Source: Methylorubrum extorquens
Lineage (GTDB): Bacteria; Pseudomonadota; Alphaproteobacteria; Rhizobiales; Beijerinckiaceae
Direction of reading: 5' to 3'
NCBI GenBank assembly: GCA_900234795.1
Contig: LT962688.1
Span: forward strand, 3,420,001 to 3,452,000
DNA length: 32,000 nucleotides
Below are positions 6,527 through 27,990 of this stretch, piece by piece (within the stretch, counting starts at the first letter, position 1; each line of letters opens with the position of its first letter). The notes beneath the pieces are model-generated. The model searched no databases. It saw only the letters and a list, made by a program, of their open reading frames with translations, and was not told the origin of the DNA. The translations under genes were made by a program, and so were the position numbers.

Positions 6527-7831
6527 ATGCACGTCGTGATCGTCGCCGAATTCGCCGCCGCGAGCGGGGGTGCCGAGAAGGTCGCGGTGGAATCCGCCCG
6601 CGGGCTCGCGGAGGCCGGCGCGACGGTGACCTACATCCAGGCGATCACCGGACCCGTCGATTCGCTGCTCGACCATCCGCGCCTGCACCGCATGGACCTC
6701 GCTCTGCCGGATGTGTGGTCGCTGCCGGCATGGCGCGGCGCGGCGTCGGGGATCTGGAACGGCGAGGCCGCCGCGCGGCTTGCCAGCGCGCTCGACAGCT
6801 TGCCGGTGCCGCCCGACTGTCTTCACCTGCACCAGTGGACCCGCGCGCTCTCGCCGGCCGTGCTGCCGGTGCTGCTCGGCCGCGGCGTTCCCCTGGTGCT
6901 GACGCTGCACGACTACGCTCTGACCTGTCCGAACGGTGTCGATTACCGCTTCGATCGGGCCGAGCCCTGCGCGCTCGTCCCGCTCTCCGGCGCCTGCCTC
7001 GCCGCCGCCTGCGATCCGAAGAGCCGGCTGCACAAGCTGGTGCGGGTCGGTCGCGCCGCCGCCCTGCGGGTCGCCGCGCGAGGGGCCGATCTCGACGTCG
7101 TCCATGTCTGCGACGGCAGCCTTGCGCGGGTGGCGGGACGGTCCGGGGCCCTGCGCCTGCGCCATCACCGCATCGACAACCCGGTGCGGGTGGAGAAGCG
7201 GGCGCCGGCCATGCCGGCTTCGGGCGATGCGATCGTCTATGTCGGGCGCCTGACGCCGGAGAAGGGCGCGGATCTCGTCACCGAGGCCGCGCGAAAGGCC
7301 GGACTGCCCGCGCTCTTCATTGGGGCCGGCCCGCTCGAAGCACGTCTGCGGGCGGAGGGCGCCGAGGTGCTCGGATGGCGAAGCCCGGAGGCGGTCGAGG
7401 CGATCCTACATCGCCGCGCGCGTGCGCTCTGCGCACCCTCGCGCTGGGTCGAGACCGGGCCGCTCACCGTCTACGAGGCGCTGGCCCAGGGGATTCCCGT
7501 CGTGGCGTCGCGGCGCTCCGGCGCGGCGGAGAAGGTGGCGGAAGGGGAGACCGGCTTCGTCGTCGAGCCGGAGGTGGCGGCGCTGGCCGATGCCTTCGCA
7601 GCGCTCAAGACCGACGCGCTCACCGCCCGCCTCGGCCGGGAGGCCTATGACCGGTACTGGCAGGCCCCGCTGACGCTCGCTGCCCACGCGCTTTCCCTGC
7701 TGGCGCTGTATCGGCGGATTGGGGATGAATACAAAATGCGGCAGTGCGATATGAGCCAGGCTGCCGCCGAGCCTGCTGTTGCCCATTCCATGGGCAGCAC
7801 CCTTGGCAAAGGGCGCCTTCCGACATTATAG
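6527..7831 (+). CDS. glycosyltransferase family 4, paralogue of the divergent neighbour
   Basis: MHVVIVAEFAAASGGAEKVAVESA...YVGRLTPEKG...CAPSRWVETGPLTVYEALAQGIPVVASRRSGAAEKVAEGETGFVV. Collinear similarity to the 5041..6312 product, including the H(D/E)(Y/F)...CPNG block. Confidence 0.85.
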   Translation: MHVVIVAEFAAASGGAEKVAVESARGLAEAGATVTYIQAITGPVDSLLDHPRLHRMDLALPDVWSLPAWRGAASGIWNGEAAARLASALDSLPVPPDCLHLHQWTRALSPAVLPVLLGRGVPLVLTLHDYALTCPNGVDYRFDRAEPCALVPLSGACLAAACDPKSRLHKLVRVGRAAALRVAARGADLDVVHVCDGSLARVAGRSGALRLRHHRIDNPVRVEKRAPAMPASGDAIVYVGRLTPEKGADLVTEAARKAGLPALFIGAGPLEARLRAEGAEVLGWRSPEAVEAILHRRARALCAPSRWVETGPLTVYEALAQGIPVVASRRSGAAEKVAEGETGFVVEPEVAALADAFAALKTDALTARLGREAYDRYWQAPLTLAAHALSLLALYRRIGDEYKMRQCDMSQAAAEPAVAHSMGSTLGKGRLPTL

Positions 7832-12099: not shown

Positions 12100-15000
12100 C
12101 TATGACATCTGGGGGGATGGCGCGGAGCGCAGCCCGTCCCGGTGATCGACCGGCGCAGCCCCTGCCCTCCCCGTCTCGGGCGAGACGTTCGACAGGGCGG
12201 CCGCGTCGAGCCCGTAATAATCTTCCAGAATCCGCGGGTAGATGGTCGGCTGGAACGGCTCGCGGGCGGCCCAGAGCGCGTCGATGGGAAGCGCGAGCAG
12301 GGCCGCGTTCAGCCGCTGCGGGTCATCGGCCAGCGCCGGGTCGAGGCGGTGCCCGGCCCCGCTTTCGCGCAGCCGCTCGGCCTGGGCACCGAGATCGAAC
12401 ACCACCGGCGGCACCCCCGCGGCCAGCGCCAGCGAGAGCGTGTAGCAGTAGGTCTCCGGCCAGATCGAGGGGAGGAGGACCAGGTCCGGATCGAGCCGGG
12501 CGATCTCGGCGAGCGCCGCCGCGTCGCTGCCGTAGAGACCGGTCTCGCGCACGCCCGCCGCCTCCATCGCGCGCGGCTCGGCGGAGTGGCCGATGATCGT
12601 GAACACGATCGGCAATTGCCGCAGCCGGGCGTCGAGGGCGAGGTTGTGGACGACGTCGTAGCCCTTGTGCGCGCCGATCGATCCGATCACCGCAACCCGC
12701 AGCGGCCCCTCTCGGCGCTGGCGCGCCTTGAGTTCGACGCCGGCCAGCGTCTCTTCGTGCGGGCGCACCGCGATGCGGTCGAGGTGCAGCGTGCTGCCGA
12801 TGCGATCCGCGAGATCGGCCGAGGGGGCGAACACCGTCCGGGCGCGGTCGAGGAACCCGGCCCAGTCCCGCCGCCGCTCAGCGGGATCGGGCAGCACGAT
12901 CCCGTCGGCGTCGCGATCGAGGCGGATGCAGTCGCGGCAGACGGCGGGTTCTGCCAACCCGCAATAGACGCCGTCGGATCGCACGAGATTGTTGCGGTGG
13001 CAGACCGAGGCGTAGTCGTGAAGCGTGACGTCGTAGCCGGTGCCGGCCTCCTCGATCAGCCCCATCGCCACGCGGGTCGAGGGGGCATCGAGCCCCGCCA
13101 GCGAGTGCACATGCACCATTGCCGGGCCGAGCCAGCCGATCAGCTCGGCCAGGAGATCGGCGTCGCGGTCGAGGGAGAGCGGATCGAGGATCGAGACGGG
13201 GAAGTCGATCCCGCCCGATCCGGGCAGGCCGAGCCTGAACCCGCCGGGCTCGTCGGTGCGCAGATAGACGACGGCGAGACCGGCCTCGGCGAGCCGGAGG
13301 CTCAGCGCCTCGATATGGGTCTCGACCCCGCCGCCGAAATCGTGGGTCACGATCAGGGCGATGCCGCGCTCGGCGCTGGCCGTGGCGCGCTTGGCGAAGC
13401 GGTAGAGGTCGAGGCGGCGCCGGGCGAAGCGCGCGGGATCGACCTCGATGTGGTTGTGGACCCGTCGCTGGTAATCGGGGTGCTTGGTCAGGATCGCGCG
13501 GAAGATGTCCGCGCCCTTGGTCGCGAGCAGCGCGCCGAAGGAGACGCTGCCGGAGTGGAACACGAAAATGTCGTGGGCCAGCACGTTGGTGAAGCCCGCC
13601 TTGAGGGCGCGCATGCAGAAGTCGTTCTCTTCGCCGTAGCCGCGCCCGAAGGTCTCGGCGTCGAGGAGCCCCACCGCCGCGATCGCTTCCCGGCGCATCG
13701 CCATGCAGAAGCCGACGCCCGTCGGCACCGGCGAACTCGTGCGGGCGTTGCAGGCGCGGGTGAAGGCGTCGATCTCGGCGGGCATGATCTCGAGCCGGGC
13801 CTGATTGTCGACGTTGGGCCGCGGATAGCTGCAGATCGTGGCGTTGTTCGAAAACGGCGTGACCGTCGCGACGCGGGGGTCGGCGTCGAGGTGCCAGAGC
13901 AGGCGGTCGAGCCAATCGCCGTAGACGACGACGTCGGCATTGAGGAGCACGACATCCTTGCCTGCGGCGAGTTCGAGGCCGCGGTTGCAGGTCCGTACGA
14001 AGCCGAGATTCGCCTCGTTGACGAGGTGAGTGAAGAGGCCGCGGCCGCCGAGGTCGGCCAGAGCCGCGCTCAGGCGCGGATCGGGGCTGCAATCGTCGAT
14101 GACGAGGAGGGCGAAGGGCGTGGCCTGCTTCTCGCTCAGCACCGAGTGGATCGCCCGCAGGGTGTCGTCGTAGCCCTTGTAGACGGGCATGATCAGCACG
14201 ACCCGCGCCGCTGCGATGTCGGCGGCAGGCTGCGCCTGCTCCCACTCGGCCGGGGTCGGCGCGACCTGCGCGGGCCAGGTTCCGAGACCGAACGGTGTCG
14301 GCCGGAAGCCGCGCGCCCGGCCCACCGCGAGGTAGTGGAAGAACGGGTTCACCCCGGCCCCGATCTCCCGCCGGTAATGCTTGCGGTAGAAGCGCACCGA
14401 GAAGTCGGGGCTCGGGTCGCGATCCTCGCGGGCGCCGAAATCGAGGAAATGGCGGACCGGATCGATGCCGGAGCGGCGGATGTCGGGATTGGAGTCGAGG
14501 TAGTGCTCCCGGTCGAAGGCCGCCGCCACCGTCTCGTAGATCTGCGCGTCGGAGGCTTCGGCCGGGTCGGCGGGAAGCAGTGCTGCCTGCGGCTTGGTGC
14601 GCCGCGCGGGCGGGGCGGCGGCCTCCGAGGCCTGAAGCCGTCGCGTGGCGGCAAAATGATAGAGCGGGCTGACGCCGAGGCGCCGCATATGCGCGTGGCG
14701 CTGGAGGTAGGCGTCGCCCGAGAAGGCGTCGTTCGGGTCGAGCCCGCGCCGCCAGCCCTTGGTCAGGTAGTGGGAGAGCGGGTCCTCGCCTCCCTCGAGG
14801 CCGGCGAGGCGGGCATAATACGGCGCATCGAAATAGGGCTCGACCACGCCGGCCTGGAGCGACGGAAAATCCGGACCCGGCTGCGTCGCGACCCGCAGCC
14901 GCTCGGTCGGCGAGAGCGCCGCATAGTGGAGAAGCGGGTTGATCGCCGCCCGGTCGGCGAAGTGGCGGTCGGCGTAGAACAGCGTCGAGAACACCGCGGA

Positions 15001-15168
15001 CGGGTCGCGGCCCTCCAGCCAGCCATGGTCGAGGTAGTGCCGAAGCGGGTCGCCGCCGCCCGCAGCCACATCGGGATAGGCCGAGCGGTAGAAGGCGGGA
15101 TCGAAGAAGGGGGCGGCCATCGCGGCATCGCGGCGCCTGGGCCGAAACAGCTTCGGCAGCTTGATCAC
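12100..15168 (-). CDS. large multidomain glycosyltransferase: N-terminal ~60-aa repeats + GT2 domain + GT4-like domain
   Basis: GT2 block: VVLIMPVYKGYDDTLRAIHSVLSE...LLVIDDCSPD...NLGFVRTCNRG...DVVLLNADV...GFCMAMRRE. C-terminal GT-B/GT4-like part: ALIVTHDFGGGVETH...LHDYASVCHRNN...VIGSIGAHKG...LLPSIWPETYCYTLSLALAAGVPPVVFDLG. Probable GTG start at 15168 (VIKLPKLFRPRR) with GAGGAA 7 nt upstream; the track ORF starts at 15279. Confidence 0.85.
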   Translation of the reverse strand: MIKLPKLFRPRRRDAAMAAPFFDPAFYRSAYPDVAAGGGDPLRHYLDHGWLEGRDPSAVFSTLFYADRHFADRAAINPLLHYAALSPTERLRVATQPGPDFPSLQAGVVEPYFDAPYYARLAGLEGGEDPLSHYLTKGWRRGLDPNDAFSGDAYLQRHAHMRRLGVSPLYHFAATRRLQASEAAAPPARRTKPQAALLPADPAEASDAQIYETVAAAFDREHYLDSNPDIRRSGIDPVRHFLDFGAREDRDPSPDFSVRFYRKHYRREIGAGVNPFFHYLAVGRARGFRPTPFGLGTWPAQVAPTPAEWEQAQPAADIAAARVVLIMPVYKGYDDTLRAIHSVLSEKQATPFALLVIDDCSPDPRLSAALADLGGRGLFTHLVNEANLGFVRTCNRGLELAAGKDVVLLNADVVVYGDWLDRLLWHLDADPRVATVTPFSNNATICSYPRPNVDNQARLEIMPAEIDAFTRACNARTSSPVPTGVGFCMAMRREAIAAVGLLDAETFGRGYGEENDFCMRALKAGFTNVLAHDIFVFHSGSVSFGALLATKGADIFRAILTKHPDYQRRVHNHIEVDPARFARRRLDLYRFAKRATASAERGIALIVTHDFGGGVETHIEALSLRLAEAGLAVVYLRTDEPGGFRLGLPGSGGIDFPVSILDPLSLDRDADLLAELIGWLGPAMVHVHSLAGLDAPSTRVAMGLIEEAGTGYDVTLHDYASVCHRNNLVRSDGVYCGLAEPAVCRDCIRLDRDADGIVLPDPAERRRDWAGFLDRARTVFAPSADLADRIGSTLHLDRIAVRPHEETLAGVELKARQRREGPLRVAVIGSIGAHKGYDVVHNLALDARLRQLPIVFTIIGHSAEPRAMEAAGVRETGLYGSDAAALAEIARLDPDLVLLPSIWPETYCYTLSLALAAGVPPVVFDLGAQAERLRESGAGHRLDPALADDPQRLNAALLALPIDALWAAREPFQPTIYPRILEDYYGLDAAALSNVSPETGRAGAAPVDHRDGLRSAPSPQMS

Positions 15169-15400
15169 GGCCACATTCCTCGACAACGCCAATACCGGGC
15201 CCCGCGCCGGGATCGGCCCTTCGACTTGCATGGAAAGGAAGTGTGGCGCGGCCGGGGCGACGCCCTTCCCATACAGCATCGTCCCGAAGGGTGGCGGCCG
15301 GCTTCCACGAAAATGACGATGCGCGCGCCGATCGGGTGACGCAAGCGCGGTCGCCCACGCGAGAATGCGCCCGAACCTCTTCCCCCATAGCGGAGTTCGG

Positions 15401-15493
15401 CTCTAAGAGTGCCTCACAAAACTCCCGATCACCGTACGGTTGCTTTCCGGGTGCGACGGCGCAGCGGGAGTTTTGTGAGAGACACTCAGCATC
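15401..15493 (+). promoter_or_regulatory. conserved hairpin leader element, copy A (perfect 15-bp stem 15413-15427 / 15465-15479 plus conserved 3' box)
   Basis: CTCACAAAACTCCCG pairs perfectly with CGGGAGTTTTGTGAG. The 3' box GTTTTGTGAGAGACACTCAGCATC matches 22 of 24 nt with 20497-20520. It lies in the divergent intergenic region upstream of the DUF21-CBS gene. Confidence 0.45.
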
Positions 15494-15544
15494 GGTGCCG
15501 CCTCAGGGGCGGTCAGCAGTGCGGCTTGGCCCCGGGAGGGCACG

Positions 15545-16861
15545 ATTTCGGACGGTCTCTGGTCTTCGGCGGTTGGCCTCGTCGCGGTCATCGCGCTCGT
15601 CTTCGCCAACGGCTTCTTCGTCGCGGCGGAATTCTCCCTCGTCGCGGTGCGGCGCAGCCGGGTCGCCGAACTGGTCAACGAGGGCCGGCTCAATGCCAAG
15701 GCGCTTCAGCGCGCCACCGACCGGCTCGACGCGCATCTCGCCGCGACGCAGCTCGGCATCACGTTGTCCTCGCTGGCGCTCGGCTGGGTCGGCGAGCCGG
15801 CCCTGGCCCACCTGATCGAGCCACTGCTCTACTGGCTGCCGGAGAAAGCCGCTGGCCTCAGCGCCCATACGCTGGCCGTGGCTTTGGCCTTTGCCGTCAT
15901 CACCACGCTGCACATCGTGCTGGGTGAGCTGGCGCCGAAAAGCCTCGCGCTCCAGCGCAGCGAGCGCACGGCGCTGGTGATCGTGCGGCCGCTGACGCTG
16001 TTCCTGCTGGTGTTCGGCCCGGCGATCCATCTCCTCAACAGCCTCGGCAACGGGGTGTTGCGGCTCCTCGGCCTCAGGCCGGGCGAGGGCGAGGGAAACC
16101 TCCCCTTCCCCAAGGAACTCAGCCTGCTCGTCACCGCGAGCCACGAGGCGGGCCTGCTGCACGAGGCGCAGGAGGATGCGGTGGCGCGCATCCTCGCCAT
16201 CGGCGAGCGGCGCATCCGCGAGATTATGACCCCGCGCAACGAGGTGGACTGGGTCGATCTCGACGATTCGCAGGAGGAGATCATCGAGGCGGTGCGCACC
16301 TGCCGCCACGAGCAGCTCGTCGTGAGCCGGGCGCAGATCGACGATGTCGTCGGCGTGCTGCGCAAGCAGGATCTGCTCGACCAGTTCCTCGACGGCAAGC
16401 CGCTCGATGTGAAGGGGGCGACCCGCGAGCCCATCGTCGTCCACGAGGGTCTGGCGATCCTCAAGGTGCTGGAGATGTTCCAGACCAAGCCGGTGCGCAT
16501 GGCGATCGTCGTCGACGAGTACGGCAGCCTGGAGGGCATCGTCACCCAGACCGACCTGCTGGAGGCGATGGCCGGCGAGATCCCCGAGCCCGGCGAGGAG
16601 CGGATGGTGGTCGAGCGCGAGGACGGCTCGCTGCTCATCGACGGCATGATCTCGGCGACCGACGCGTTCGACCGCCTCGGCTTTCCGGAGCGACCGCGCT
16701 CGGACGACTTTTCCACGCTCGCCGGCTTCTTCATCGTCCAGCTCGGACGCATTCCGACGGAGGGCGATGCGATCGAGACTCAGGGCTGGCGGATCGAGGT
16801 CGTCGATATGGACGGGCGGCGCATCGACAAGGTGCTCGCCACGCGCCTGCCGGACGCTTGA
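15545..16861 (+). CDS. hemolysin/CNNM (TlyC/CorC) family protein: DUF21 + CBS pair + CorC_HlyC domain
   Basis: DUF21: ANGFFVAAEFSLVAVRRSRV...LGITLSSLALGWVGE...LGELAPKSLALQ. CBS pair: IREIMTPRNEV...VVSRAQIDDVVGVL...MAIVVDEYGSLEGIVTQTDLLEAM. C-terminal transporter-associated domain: GWRIEVVDMDGRRIDKV. The first ATG/GTG/TTG in frame is GTG 15647, which would delete the first TM helix. I place the start at in-frame ATT 15545, behind GGGAGGG (15534-15540). The 5' end is uncertain. Confidence 0.85.
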   Translation: MSDGLWSSAVGLVAVIALVFANGFFVAAEFSLVAVRRSRVAELVNEGRLNAKALQRATDRLDAHLAATQLGITLSSLALGWVGEPALAHLIEPLLYWLPEKAAGLSAHTLAVALAFAVITTLHIVLGELAPKSLALQRSERTALVIVRPLTLFLLVFGPAIHLLNSLGNGVLRLLGLRPGEGEGNLPFPKELSLLVTASHEAGLLHEAQEDAVARILAIGERRIREIMTPRNEVDWVDLDDSQEEIIEAVRTCRHEQLVVSRAQIDDVVGVLRKQDLLDQFLDGKPLDVKGATREPIVVHEGLAILKVLEMFQTKPVRMAIVVDEYGSLEGIVTQTDLLEAMAGEIPEPGEERMVVEREDGSLLIDGMISATDAFDRLGFPERPRSDDFSTLAGFFIVQLGRIPTEGDAIETQGWRIEVVDMDGRRIDKVLATRLPDA

Positions 16862-19452: not shown

Positions 19453-19915
19453 GCCTTGATCCTGCCGGGACGACTTGCGGCAAGCTAGGGCAAGGACGGC
19501 GCTTTGGAAATCGGGCGGCTTGCTCAAACCTTTGGCAGAACGCGTTTTCTTGGCGGCCTCCGTCATGAAACCGGCCCGGAGCGGCGCCGCGAGACGCTTG
19601 TTCGGAGACGCTCCGGGCGGGGGACGCCGGGCGCGAACCTTCCCGCGAGCGGCGGAGGACAGGACTGAGCGGGATGTGCGGCCGGCAAAGACCCGGAACG
19701 ATATGACCGGGCGCACCGTTTCTGGCGCCCGAGCCGACAGCTCACGCCGCCGAGAGACGTTTCGACCCTACACCGCGATCACGCATCCCGAAATTTGCAC
19801 TCCGCTCTCGTCGCCCACTTACGACGAAGCGGAAAATTTTTGCCTTTTCCAATAACTCGCCGTGTTAATCTGCCGTTCATTGCAGCGTTTTGTTCGATTT
19901 CGATGCATATTTCTT

Positions 19916-19941
19916 GGAACGGTATTCCGGACCTCTCCGTT
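19916..19941 (+). promoter_or_regulatory. EcfG-type (general stress response ECF sigma) promoter-like motif GGAAC-N17-CGTT
   Basis: GGAAC at 19916-19920, a 17-nt spacer, then CGTT at 19938-19941, 38 nt upstream of the ATG at 19979. It matches the published alphaproteobacterial EcfG consensus GGAAC-N16-17-CGTT. Confidence 0.5.
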
Positions 19942-19978
19942 CTTGGTCCCGCAACAACCGAAACACTTGGAGGAATAC

Positions 19979-20383
19979 ATGCTCAAGCATATTCGCCTTG
20001 CCGCTCTCGCCAGCACCTTCGTCATCGGCAGCGCCGCACTCGCGTATGCCCAGTCGTCCTCGACGACCGGTACCGGCGGCTCGTCGGCGGGCGGCGGCAC
20101 CAGCTCCTCGACGGTTGGGACCGGTGGTTCTTCCGCTGGCTCGGGCAGCGGCTCGGGCTCGACGCTCGGCACCGGTGGCTCGTCGGCCGGCGGCGGCACC
20201 AGCTCCTCGACGGTCGGGACGGGCGGATCCTCGGCCAGCAAGAGCGGCAGCGGCTCGTCGACGGGCACGGGCGGCTCCACGTCCGGCACGTCCGATAGCG
20301 CGGGCAAGTCGGGCAGCGCTCCGGGTCATGACAAGAGCGGCCCCGGAAACTCCGAGAACGCTCCGGGCCACAACAAGCGCTAA
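19979..20383 (+). CDS. secreted Gly/Ser/Thr-rich low-complexity repeat protein (134 aa)
   Basis: GGAGGAA lies 5 nt before the ATG. Sec signal MLKHIRLAALASTFVIGSAALAYA|Q. The mature part is almost only G/S/T, with an internal 33-aa duplication (GSSAGGGTSSSTVGTGG twice). Confidence 0.7.
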   Translation: MLKHIRLAALASTFVIGSAALAYAQSSSTTGTGGSSAGGGTSSSTVGTGGSSAGSGSGSGSTLGTGGSSAGGGTSSSTVGTGGSSASKSGSGSSTGTGGSTSGTSDSAGKSGSAPGHDKSGPGNSENAPGHNKR

Positions 20384-20403
20384 GCCTCGGCCGGCGTAAT
20401 TGC

Positions 20404-20429
20404 GGGCGCGGTTCGGACGAACCGCGCCC
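20404..20429 (+). terminator. hairpin terminator after the Gly/Ser-rich gene
   Basis: GGGCGCGGTTC-GGAC-GAACCGCGCCC, an 11-bp perfect stem 21 nt after the stop, followed by GTCTC (weak U-tract). Confidence 0.55.
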
Positions 20430-20430
20430 G

Positions 20431-20520
20431 TCTCAGAGCACCTCGCAGAACGTCCGGGCGCCGACCATCGCCGCTCCGGCTGCGGGGTGCATGGGGGTTT
20501 TGTGAGAAACACTCATCATC
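20431..20520 (+). promoter_or_regulatory. conserved hairpin leader element, copy B (stem 20442-20456 / 20492-20506 plus conserved 3' box)
   Basis: Homologous to 15401-15493. The stem keeps 14 of 15 pairs, 4 of them as G-U wobbles that only pair on the plus-strand RNA. The 3' box GTTTTGTGAGAAACACTCATCATC ends 16 nt before the ATG at 20537. Confidence 0.45.
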
Positions 20521-20536
20521 TGAGGAGAGACGCACC

Positions 20537-20914
20537 ATGGCACGTGTGATCCGACCGCTTCTCGGCGCCACACTCGTTCTGGCCGGCATCGCCGCGAGTC
20601 AGGCCCAGACCAGCACCGTCAAAACGGGCCCGAACGGTGTCGCCGGCAGCACGACCGTCACGACCGGGCCCAACGGCAAGCCGTGCCGGCTCGTCCAATC
20701 CGACGATGCCAACACCTCCGGCACGCTGTCGAGTTCGGTCACGGCCGGCCCCGACGGGGTGAAGAGTTCCACCACCGGCGGCCCGTCGGTGACGACGCGA
20801 TCGGGCAGCGGCACGACCAGCAGTTCCGCCTCCAGTTCGAGCACCGGCAGCGGCAGCACGATGACGACAACCGGTGACGGCAACTGCGTGGTCACCGTAC
20901 CGAGCAAGAAGTGA
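20537..20914 (+). CDS. secreted Ser/Thr/Gly-rich low-complexity protein (125 aa)
   Basis: GAGGAGAGA precedes the ATG. Signal peptide MARVIRPLLGATLVLAGIAASQAQ. Repeated TGPNG/GPDG units and an S/T-rich tail, with two Cys. Confidence 0.65.
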   Translation: MARVIRPLLGATLVLAGIAASQAQTSTVKTGPNGVAGSTTVTTGPNGKPCRLVQSDDANTSGTLSSSVTAGPDGVKSSTTGGPSVTTRSGSGTTSSSASSSSTGSGSTMTTTGDGNCVVTVPSKK

Positions 20915-20921
20915 GGGTCCG

Positions 20922-21371
20922 ATGAGCATTGCCAAGACGAACACACGTGCGGCGACGGCGCTTGCCGTCCTCGGCCTCGTCCTCGCCCCGGCTTTCGCGC
21001 AGGCGCAGGGCAGTGCCACGGCGGGCAGCGCCGGCTCGGCGGCATCCGGCGGCACCTCCGCCTCGACCGTCGGCACCGGCGGCACCTCGACGGGCGCGAA
21101 CGGCGGCACGGGCTCCTCGCTGGCGACCGGCGGCGCTGCGGCCGGCGGCAAGACCATGGACCGCTCGCATGTGAACGAGACCGGAAATGGCGGCCTCAAC
21201 GGCCAGTCCAAGTCCATGGCCCATGATGGCGGCACGTTCTCGAAATCGCAGACCAAGACCAAGGTCCGCGACGGTGAGAGCGTCGAGTCGCGCACCAAGA
21301 CCATGTCGCACGAGCCCGGCTCGAAACCCGTGAAATCGACGACCACCACGGGCGCGACCACCGGCCAGTGA
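20922..21371 (+). CDS. secreted Gly/Ser/Thr/Ala-rich protein (149 aa), partly paralogous to the 19979 gene product
   Basis: ATG at 20922, 8 nt after the previous stop, with GAGGG upstream. Signal peptide MSIAKTNTRAATALAVLGLVLAPAFAQA. It shares the GGTSASTVGTGGTS motif with the 19979 product. The C-terminal half is lysine/threonine-rich. Confidence 0.65.
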   Translation: MSIAKTNTRAATALAVLGLVLAPAFAQAQGSATAGSAGSAASGGTSASTVGTGGTSTGANGGTGSSLATGGAAAGGKTMDRSHVNETGNGGLNGQSKSMAHDGGTFSKSQTKTKVRDGESVESRTKTMSHEPGSKPVKSTTTTGATTGQ

Positions 21372-27903: not shown

Positions 27904-27990
27904 GCGGACGTGGCGAAACCGGTAGACGCACGAGACTTAAAATCTTGCGGCCGCAAGGCTGTGCGGGTTCGAGTCCCGCCGTCCGCACCA
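27904..27990 (+). tRNA. tRNA-Leu (anticodon TAA), type II with long variable arm, CCA encoded
   Basis: Hand-folded. Acceptor stem GCGGACG/CGTCCGC. D arm GCG-AAACCGGTAGA-CGC. Anticodon stem CGAGA/TCTTG with loop CTTAAAA. Variable arm CGGCCGCAAGGCTGT. T arm GCGGG-TTCGAGT-CCCGC. Discriminator A followed by CCA. Confidence 0.85.

Follow-up and report, generated by a model that had tools for sequence, protein, structure and literature searches.

A long hairpin occurs twice in the window, by which we mean the whole stretch of 32,000 nucleotides that was analysed, and the question is whether it works as a structured RNA in the transcripts of neighbouring genes or is simply inserted DNA. The sequence of the window places it in the Methylorubrum extorquens group. 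The original prediction favoured a genus-specific structured RNA, a processing or stability element, or a small mobile repeat. The results reported here show that the two hairpins, termed copies A and B, are very probably copies of an IS5/IS1031-type MITE, that is, ordinary mobile-DNA insertions. The element is designated a MITE because it is short and non-coding, ends in inverted repeats, is flanked by a target-site duplication, occurs in many dispersed copies and is polymorphic for insertion. Of the favoured options, the small mobile repeat is thus borne out by the duplications and the empty sites, and the genus-specific structured RNA has to be given up.

The two hairpins and their boundaries

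Copy A has a perfect 15-bp stem, in which positions 15413-15427 (CTCACAAAACTCCCG) are the exact reverse complement of positions 15465-15479 (CGGGAGTTTTGTGAG). The corresponding arms of copy B (20442-20456, CTCGCAGAACGTCCG, and 20492-20506, TGGGGGTTTTGTGAG) pair at 14 of 15 positions, four of these pairs being G-T/T-G wobbles, with a single G-G mismatch. The 24-nt 3' boxes of the two copies are identical at 22 positions, and all of these features had been described correctly. The window contains the 19-nt core of the box, GTTTTGTGAGARACACTCA, at just two places, 15470 and 20497, in each case on the plus strand, where the chance expectation is zero (100 shuffles). The proposed length of about 90 nt held only in part: the hairpins are where they had been placed, but the element proper is shorter (79 and 77 bp), and the former end of the box takes in the duplication TCA plus five nucleotides of unrelated host flank (GCATC in copy A, TCATC in copy B). 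The features are as follows.

15404-15406, plus strand: 5' target-site duplication of copy A (TAA), matching the single TAA in the empty site of loci L143/L144
15407-15485, plus strand: copy A of the probable MITE, element proper, 79 bp; full-length match to covariance model R1 (98.6 bits) and match to the family HMM
15407-15427, plus strand: 5' terminal inverted repeat of copy A (GAGTGCCTCACAAAACTCCCG), sequence as in the 98-copy consensus; the inner 15 nt are fully paired with 15465-15479
15465-15485, plus strand: 3' terminal inverted repeat of copy A (CGGGAGTTTTGTGAGAGACAC); read in reverse complement (GTGTCTCTCACAAAACTCCCG), it agrees with the 5' repeat in 18 of 21 nucleotides
15486-15488, plus strand: 3' target-site duplication of copy A (now TCA), placed by the pattern of duplications in the family and by the empty site
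20433-20435, plus strand: 5' target-site duplication of copy B (TCA), identical to 20513-20515
20436-20512, plus strand: copy B of the probable MITE, element proper, 77 bp, diverged; 58.3 bits with covariance model R1
20513-20515, plus strand: 3' target-site duplication of copy B (TCA), identical to 20433-20435

Both elements lack coding capacity and are hairpin throughout, with a TGA inside the 3' repeat, and two bases of the outer GAGTG/CACTC helix come from the target-site duplication. Copy B belongs to a subfamily with a changed 5' terminus, in which GAGCACC, GCGCACC or GTGCACC stands in place of GAGTGCC (window positions 20436-20442 and loci L026, L034, L012 and L002); the copies in L026 and L034 obtain nearly equal covariance-model scores on both strands. 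The predicted fold of copy A reaches -46.4 kcal/mol on the plus strand (z = -3.6) and -47.3 kcal/mol on the minus strand (z = -5.0), so that folding is no weaker on the minus strand. The region of copy B is also more stable than shuffled sequences (z = -3.1), and the minimum-free-energy fold of its 106-nt region is formed without the long hairpin.

Searches against known RNA families returned no candidate for either hairpin. When the window was scanned with cmscan against Rfam 15 at gathering thresholds, the sole match was a tRNA gene (27904-27987), and a relaxed scan of both element regions at E<=10 gave nothing above noise, the best scores being 17.6-17.8 bits against thresholds of 52-60. 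The Methylobacterium-1 motif, which had been put forward as a candidate, had no cmscan match and is excluded as far as the Rfam model can tell; it has the genus alone in common with the MITE. The tRNA gene has a long variable arm and scores 59.5 bits against the Rfam tRNA model; judging from its anticodon loop, CUUAAAA, it is probably a tRNA-Leu(UAA). Consensus scans for EcfG-type and sigma-70 promoters and for intrinsic terminators found none inside or beside the elements, and the idea of a GGAAC-N16-CGTT promoter failed on inspection of the sequence.

A dispersed family with target-site duplications and empty sites

An exact scan for the 3' box across 185,579 species genomes, one per bacterial or archaeal species, yielded 45 loci. 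All but two of them come from Methylobacterium/Methylorubrum or from metagenome-assembled genomes of that family, and the remaining two (L004 and L038) are chance matches without the rest of the element. Several genomes contain three to six exact matches to the box, all with unrelated flanks, and the copies align across about 85 nt with sharp edges beyond which the flanks are likewise unrelated. A covariance model built from 44 copies detected additional, more diverged copies in the recovered loci and, in the window, just the two known ones. Scanning metagenomes for the 5' arm AGTGCCTCACAAAACTCCCG, a query that leaves both flanks free, added 74 loci, and an HMM search of 1 Mb of recovered loci gave 150 copies, 101 of them non-redundant. 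The element proper so defined runs from GAGTGCC to GAGACAC and measures 79 bp, with terminal inverted repeats of 21 nt that match at 18 of 21 positions and are more than 90% conserved among 98 copies. Decayed members were also seen (L102:5340-5374, L136:8261-8295 and L094:1494-1553), among them a 5' half on its own beside an unrelated coding fragment and a copy that has lost its interior. The family is confined to Methylobacterium/Methylorubrum. Full-text search found the box sequence in no paper, and literature searches for MITE or REP elements of Methylobacterium led to MiniMdi3 only; as far as this search reaches, the family is previously undescribed.

The first sample had been ascertained on sequence ending in CACTCA, which fixes the 3' flank, and the metagenome sample collected by the 5' arm was used for that reason. 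In this sample, which is blind to the flanks, 29 of 65 copies have the same trinucleotide on the 5' and the 3' side, as compared with a mean of 10.2 (sd 2.7, maximum 22) when flanks are paired at random in 10,000 shuffles. As a control, the next trinucleotides outward match in only one of the 65. Matched duplications include TTA/TTA, TAA/TAA, TCA/TCA, TGA/TGA and CAA/CAA. The flanks read TNA on both sides in 36 copies, the middle base being the same in 28 of these, and TAA or TTA accounts for 20 of 28 perfect duplication pairs; the duplication is still perfect in only about 45% of copies. A duplication of 2 bp (TA) or 4 bp (TCAG/YTAR) does not fit the TCA, TGA and CAA pairs. The target context is palindromic, with G(-3) n C(-1) before TNA and G(+1) n C(+3) after it. 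Members of the IS1031 group of the IS5 family prefer TNA targets and produce an exclusive 3-bp repeat (PMC12016507; PMC2516522). We assign the family to this type because an exclusive 3-bp TNA duplication is the hallmark of that group.

Empty sites were found for both window copies. The counterpart of copy A in L143/L144, from a related species with the same gene order and a 92% identical CNNM protein, reads GGCTC (or GGCTT)-TAA-GCATCGG with a single TAA (...GGTTCGGCTT-TAA-GCATCGGTGCC...). Once positions 15407-15488 are removed, the window aligns to these loci without a gap across the junction, and copy A is therefore an insertion of 82 bp (79 bp plus the duplication) at TAA. Its 3' duplicate, TCA, is one base off the 5' duplicate TAA and, by comparison with the empty site, has changed after insertion; the GCATC that had been counted into the box is host sequence. 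Synteny anchored on the peptidase gene, which was also tried in the search for this site, breaks outside the M. extorquens group, and anchoring on the CNNM protein succeeded. Copy A is present in all 11 M. extorquens-group strains examined.

Copy B is present in those strains of the group that retain the neighbouring gene cluster and is absent from the orthologous spacer of L057/L058, in which the terminator-like hairpin on the upstream side and the start region on the downstream side are both retained. A third filled/empty pair is formed by L003, with the element, and L104, without it. In the metagenomic relative L072, the copy-B spacer (6979-7063) holds a family member in the opposite orientation and with different flanking trinucleotides; either the site is a hot spot that was hit independently, or the element was inverted in situ. 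The low-complexity, S/G/T-rich secreted-protein gene cluster around copy B (19862-21371) is replaced by an MFS transporter gene in the otherwise syntenic loci L049, L051 and L053, from which copy B is gone together with the cluster.

Position beside genes and substitutions in the hairpin

Copy A is located 56 nt before the ATT start of a CNNM/CorC gene, in the spacer that separates this gene from a divergently oriented glycosyltransferase gene (12100-15279, minus strand). Copy B has the terminator-like hairpin of the preceding gene on one side and, on the other, the ribosome-binding site of a gene that encodes a small secreted protein rich in S and T, whose ATG follows 21 nt after the element. 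The assignment of the element to 5' leaders is thus accurate for the two window copies, which both stand upstream of plus-strand genes, but it does not extend to the family, most copies of which are downstream of genes, at their 3' ends. Gene positions were obtained with a finder based on codon log-likelihood and trained on the recovered loci, replacing a GC3-based finder that had missed genes. Among the 101 non-redundant copies, stops outnumber starts by 67 to 26 at one end of the element and by 56 to 37 at the other. Each end faces a gene stop about 70% of the time in an unbiased sample of 60 copies, and in 31 of these (52%) the adjoining gene uses a duplicated TNA as its stop codon, 17 times at the 3' end and 14 times at the 5' end. 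The orientation of the element relative to genes is random; the bias of the first sample (22 of 50 at the box end) arose because it was ascertained on TCA. The association with stop codons is explained by the target, since a last codon ending in C followed by TGA or TAA fits GnC|TNA|GnC, and the duplication restores the stop.

The genes and spacers next to the two copies have some features of their own. In the start region of the CNNM/CorC gene (15545-16861; start region 15476-15647), none of the codons ATG, GTG and TTG occurs from the in-frame TGA (15476-15478) up to the first transmembrane helix; a strong Shine-Dalgarno sequence, GGGAGGG (15534-15540), precedes the ATT at 15545-15547, an arrangement that other Methylobacterium species have conserved (L143-L146). 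The protein is annotated differently in public records (404, 423 or 438 aa). Sequence comparison suggests what looks like a conserved non-canonical ATT start codon. The leader of about 55 nt between copy A and the ATT (15489-15544) has no segregating site in 11 strains and one when L072 is included, and the variation beside it amounts to 12-14% in the MITE, 6-18% in the upstream spacer and 4-11% in the coding sequence. It can form a small hairpin (GCCGCC-TCAG-GGGCGG), has no Rfam match and is less conserved in L143. Near copy B, positions 20402-20430 form a G+C-rich hairpin (GCGGGCGCGGTTC...GAACCGCGCCCG) just past the stop codon of the preceding gene; its conservation in the element-free orthologue L057 shows it to be host sequence, and it was not called by the terminator scan because it has no T-run.

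If transcribed, copies A and B could alter the expression of their neighbours, copy A that of the CNNM/CorC gene and copy B that of the small secreted-protein gene. This raises the alternative that the family originated as a MITE and that some copies were later co-opted as RNA hairpins, which would stabilise or terminate the upstream transcript or damp translation of the adjacent gene. We regard co-option as unlikely. It would agree with a hairpin that begins directly at the stop codon in about half of the unbiased copies and is very stable (about -46 kcal/mol), and with the persistence of copy A throughout the M. extorquens group, close to an apparent ATT start and beside an invariant leader. 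The stop association, however, follows from the GnC|TNA|GnC target together with the purging of harmful insertions, and the stem is followed by no U-run and makes no terminator-like site. Species without copy A keep the same leader and the same ATT. Moreover, stem-breaking changes in orthologous copies accumulate at least as fast as changes in the adjacent spacer: among 11 M. extorquens-group strains, segregating sites number 10 of 85 in copy A and 8 of 124 in the upstream spacer, with 0 of 55 in the leader adjoining the gene and 14 of 357 in the coding sequence. Selection for a regulatory role is unlikely because the stems decay, and there is no indication of selection for an effect on neighbouring genes. 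Stop-proximal REP elements in E. coli have been reported to affect translation termination or mRNA 3'-end stability, and by analogy there is a small chance that stop-adjacent copies have been co-opted to modulate these processes, and that copy A could tune CNNM/CorC expression.

The argument for function as a plus-strand RNA was based on G-U-compatible substitutions in copy B. The 5' arm (CTCACAAAAC) consists of C and A only, and the 3' arm of G and T only. Because of this composition, any A>G or C>T transition in the 5' arm produces a plus-strand wobble, and transitions in the 3' arm (G>A, T>C) produce C·A or A·C on the plus strand and a minus-strand wobble. For a hairpin arm that is purely C/A, substitutions compatible with wobble pairing are therefore uninformative. 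We used reciprocal sampling, in which one arm is fixed by ascertainment and substitutions are counted in the other. In the 41 copies selected by their 3' arm, transitions per site amounted to 3.7% and transversions to 1.5% in the 5' arm; the corresponding values for the 3' arm, from the 65 copies selected by their 5' arm, were 4.0% and 1.4%. The substitution spectra of the two arms are indistinguishable. Such reciprocal sampling is a cheap way to settle arguments from wobble pairs.

Orthologous copies do not favour wobbles either. The fourth pair of copy B is A-T in three strains, G·T in the window and three others, and A·C in PA1 and a relative, where the 3' arm reads GTTTTGCGAG, and copy A carries mismatches in three strains (CTCACAACAC, C·T, and CGGGAATTTT, C·A). 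Across 98 non-redundant copies, 95.3% of stem cells are paired, as compared with 94.9% in column shuffles, and 82 cells are unpaired, 37 have become wobbles through a change on one side and 6 are changed on both sides; no covariation beyond that of shuffles was detected in this set. The hairpin is not maintained by selection.

The reading as a genus-specific, cis-acting structured RNA, whose hairpin would be selected in the plus-strand transcript through G-U-compatible changes, is consequently very improbable. It is consistent with the placement of both window copies before plus-strand genes, with the 14 pairs of copy B (four of them wobbles), with folding energies below those of shuffles for both regions and with the retention of copy A in 11 of 11 strains. 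Against it stand the equal arm spectra, the A·C, C·U and C·A mismatches in orthologues, covariation at the level of shuffles, the even split of stop overlaps (17 vs 14 in 60 unbiased copies), the folding of the minus strand of copy A and the hairpin-free fold of copy B, the lack of an Rfam match, and target-site duplications and empty sites that mark inserted DNA. Random orientation without covariation, as found here, is the pattern of a simple REP- or MITE-like repeat, and the original prediction had itself named this pattern as evidence against an RNA function. The earlier argument against a ligand-specific riboswitch was right.

Least probable of all, and in our view scarcely credible, is a REP/REPIN or IS200/IS605-derived palindrome that a Y1 (HUH) transposase, for instance a RAYT, would move in single-stranded form and insert without duplication on the 3' side of a short target: it would suit the long imperfect hairpin of REPIN-like size, the strong enrichment beside gene ends and an element end that always abutted TCA/TGA in the first, biased sample, but the flanking trinucleotide is duplicated and variable between copies, which is not a product of Y1 transposition, single arms are not palindromes, the conserved GTAG-type tetranucleotide is absent and insertion is orientation-neutral. 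An IS200/IS605- or REPIN-like insertion 3' of TGA was ruled out by the variable, matched duplications of the unbiased sample.

Related elements and a model of mobilisation

Comparison with known systems sets the IS1031-type MITE apart from other small repeats. REP sequences and REPINs make no duplication and depend on RAYT, and Correia elements duplicate TA; both resemble the window family in being small, dispersed, hairpin-forming, extragenic, near gene ends and often co-transcribed, and both differ from it in that it duplicates TNA. Tourist-type MITEs of plants belong to the PIF/Harbinger superfamily, which is eukaryotic and distantly related to IS5, and are mobilised by PIF/Harbinger transposases. 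They share with the window family a 3-bp, mostly TAA/TTA duplication and short hairpin-forming inverted repeats, and there is no sequence relationship. MITEs of the IS1031 group are likewise short and non-coding, with terminal inverted repeats and an exclusive 3-bp TNA duplication, and the palindromic target context also agrees; the window MITE differs in that each repeat takes up 21 of 79 bp, so that nearly the whole element is one hairpin. MiniMdi3, a MITE of 382-416 bp from M. extorquens AM1/DM4 that is related to ISMdi3, was found by genome comparison (PMC2680597). It is also non-autonomous and comes from the same species group, whereas the window MITE has 79 bp and unrelated ends and is not mentioned in the MiniMdi3 paper or its supplement (PMC2680597).

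An autonomous partner would be expected to show two inverted matches to GAGTGCCTCACAAAAC around a DDE_Tnp_1/DUF4096 transposase gene. Searches of 72,556 plasmids by blastn with the whole element and with the terminal repeat, for an autonomous IS with matching ends, returned only MITE copies. A search for solo repeats in 1 Mb of recovered loci gave only truncated copies (L102/L136) and no parent IS, and neither did an all-against-all search of these loci for repeated segments. A tblastn search with an IS5 transposase as query then led to the inspection of three Methylobacterium IS5 elements. Two of them, of IS1031 type and located on plasmids (L140:12129-13047 and L141, about 314-1229), have GAG ends, the same 5' end as the window MITE, and 3-bp duplications of TCA or TAA. 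That of pLVM1 reads TCA-GACCCCGTTTCATAATGG...CCGTTATGAAACGGGCTC-TCA, and that of NZ_CP099613 reads TAA-GAGCCCGTCCGATAA...TTATCGGACGGACTC-TAA. These two elements share with the ends of the MITE only the GAG and about 10 of the 15-16 terminal bases; the 3' end of the MITE reads GTG, not GAG, in reverse complement. A copy of ISMpo7 (L140:16682-17531) was rejected as a parent because it has a TA duplication instead.

In the proposed mechanism, the DDE transposase of an IS5-family, IS1031-group-type IS would bind both terminal repeats of the MITE in trans. Insertion would proceed through a staggered 3-nt cut, and gap repair would then create the duplication. Copies would accumulate at gene ends, where TGA or TAA after a C-ending codon fits the target and duplication regenerates the stop codon, while insertions within genes or promoters would be purged. 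The hairpin would be the pairing of the two terminal repeats and no more.

The finding brings no new class of regulatory RNA; rather, the family is now delimited for masking and annotation in Methylobacterium and Methylorubrum genomes, where elements at gene boundaries can mislead the calling of starts and stops as well as motif discovery. It also illustrates how a TNA-targeting transposon fares in a genome of 70% G+C, with a duplication that doubles as a stop codon in about half of the surviving copies.
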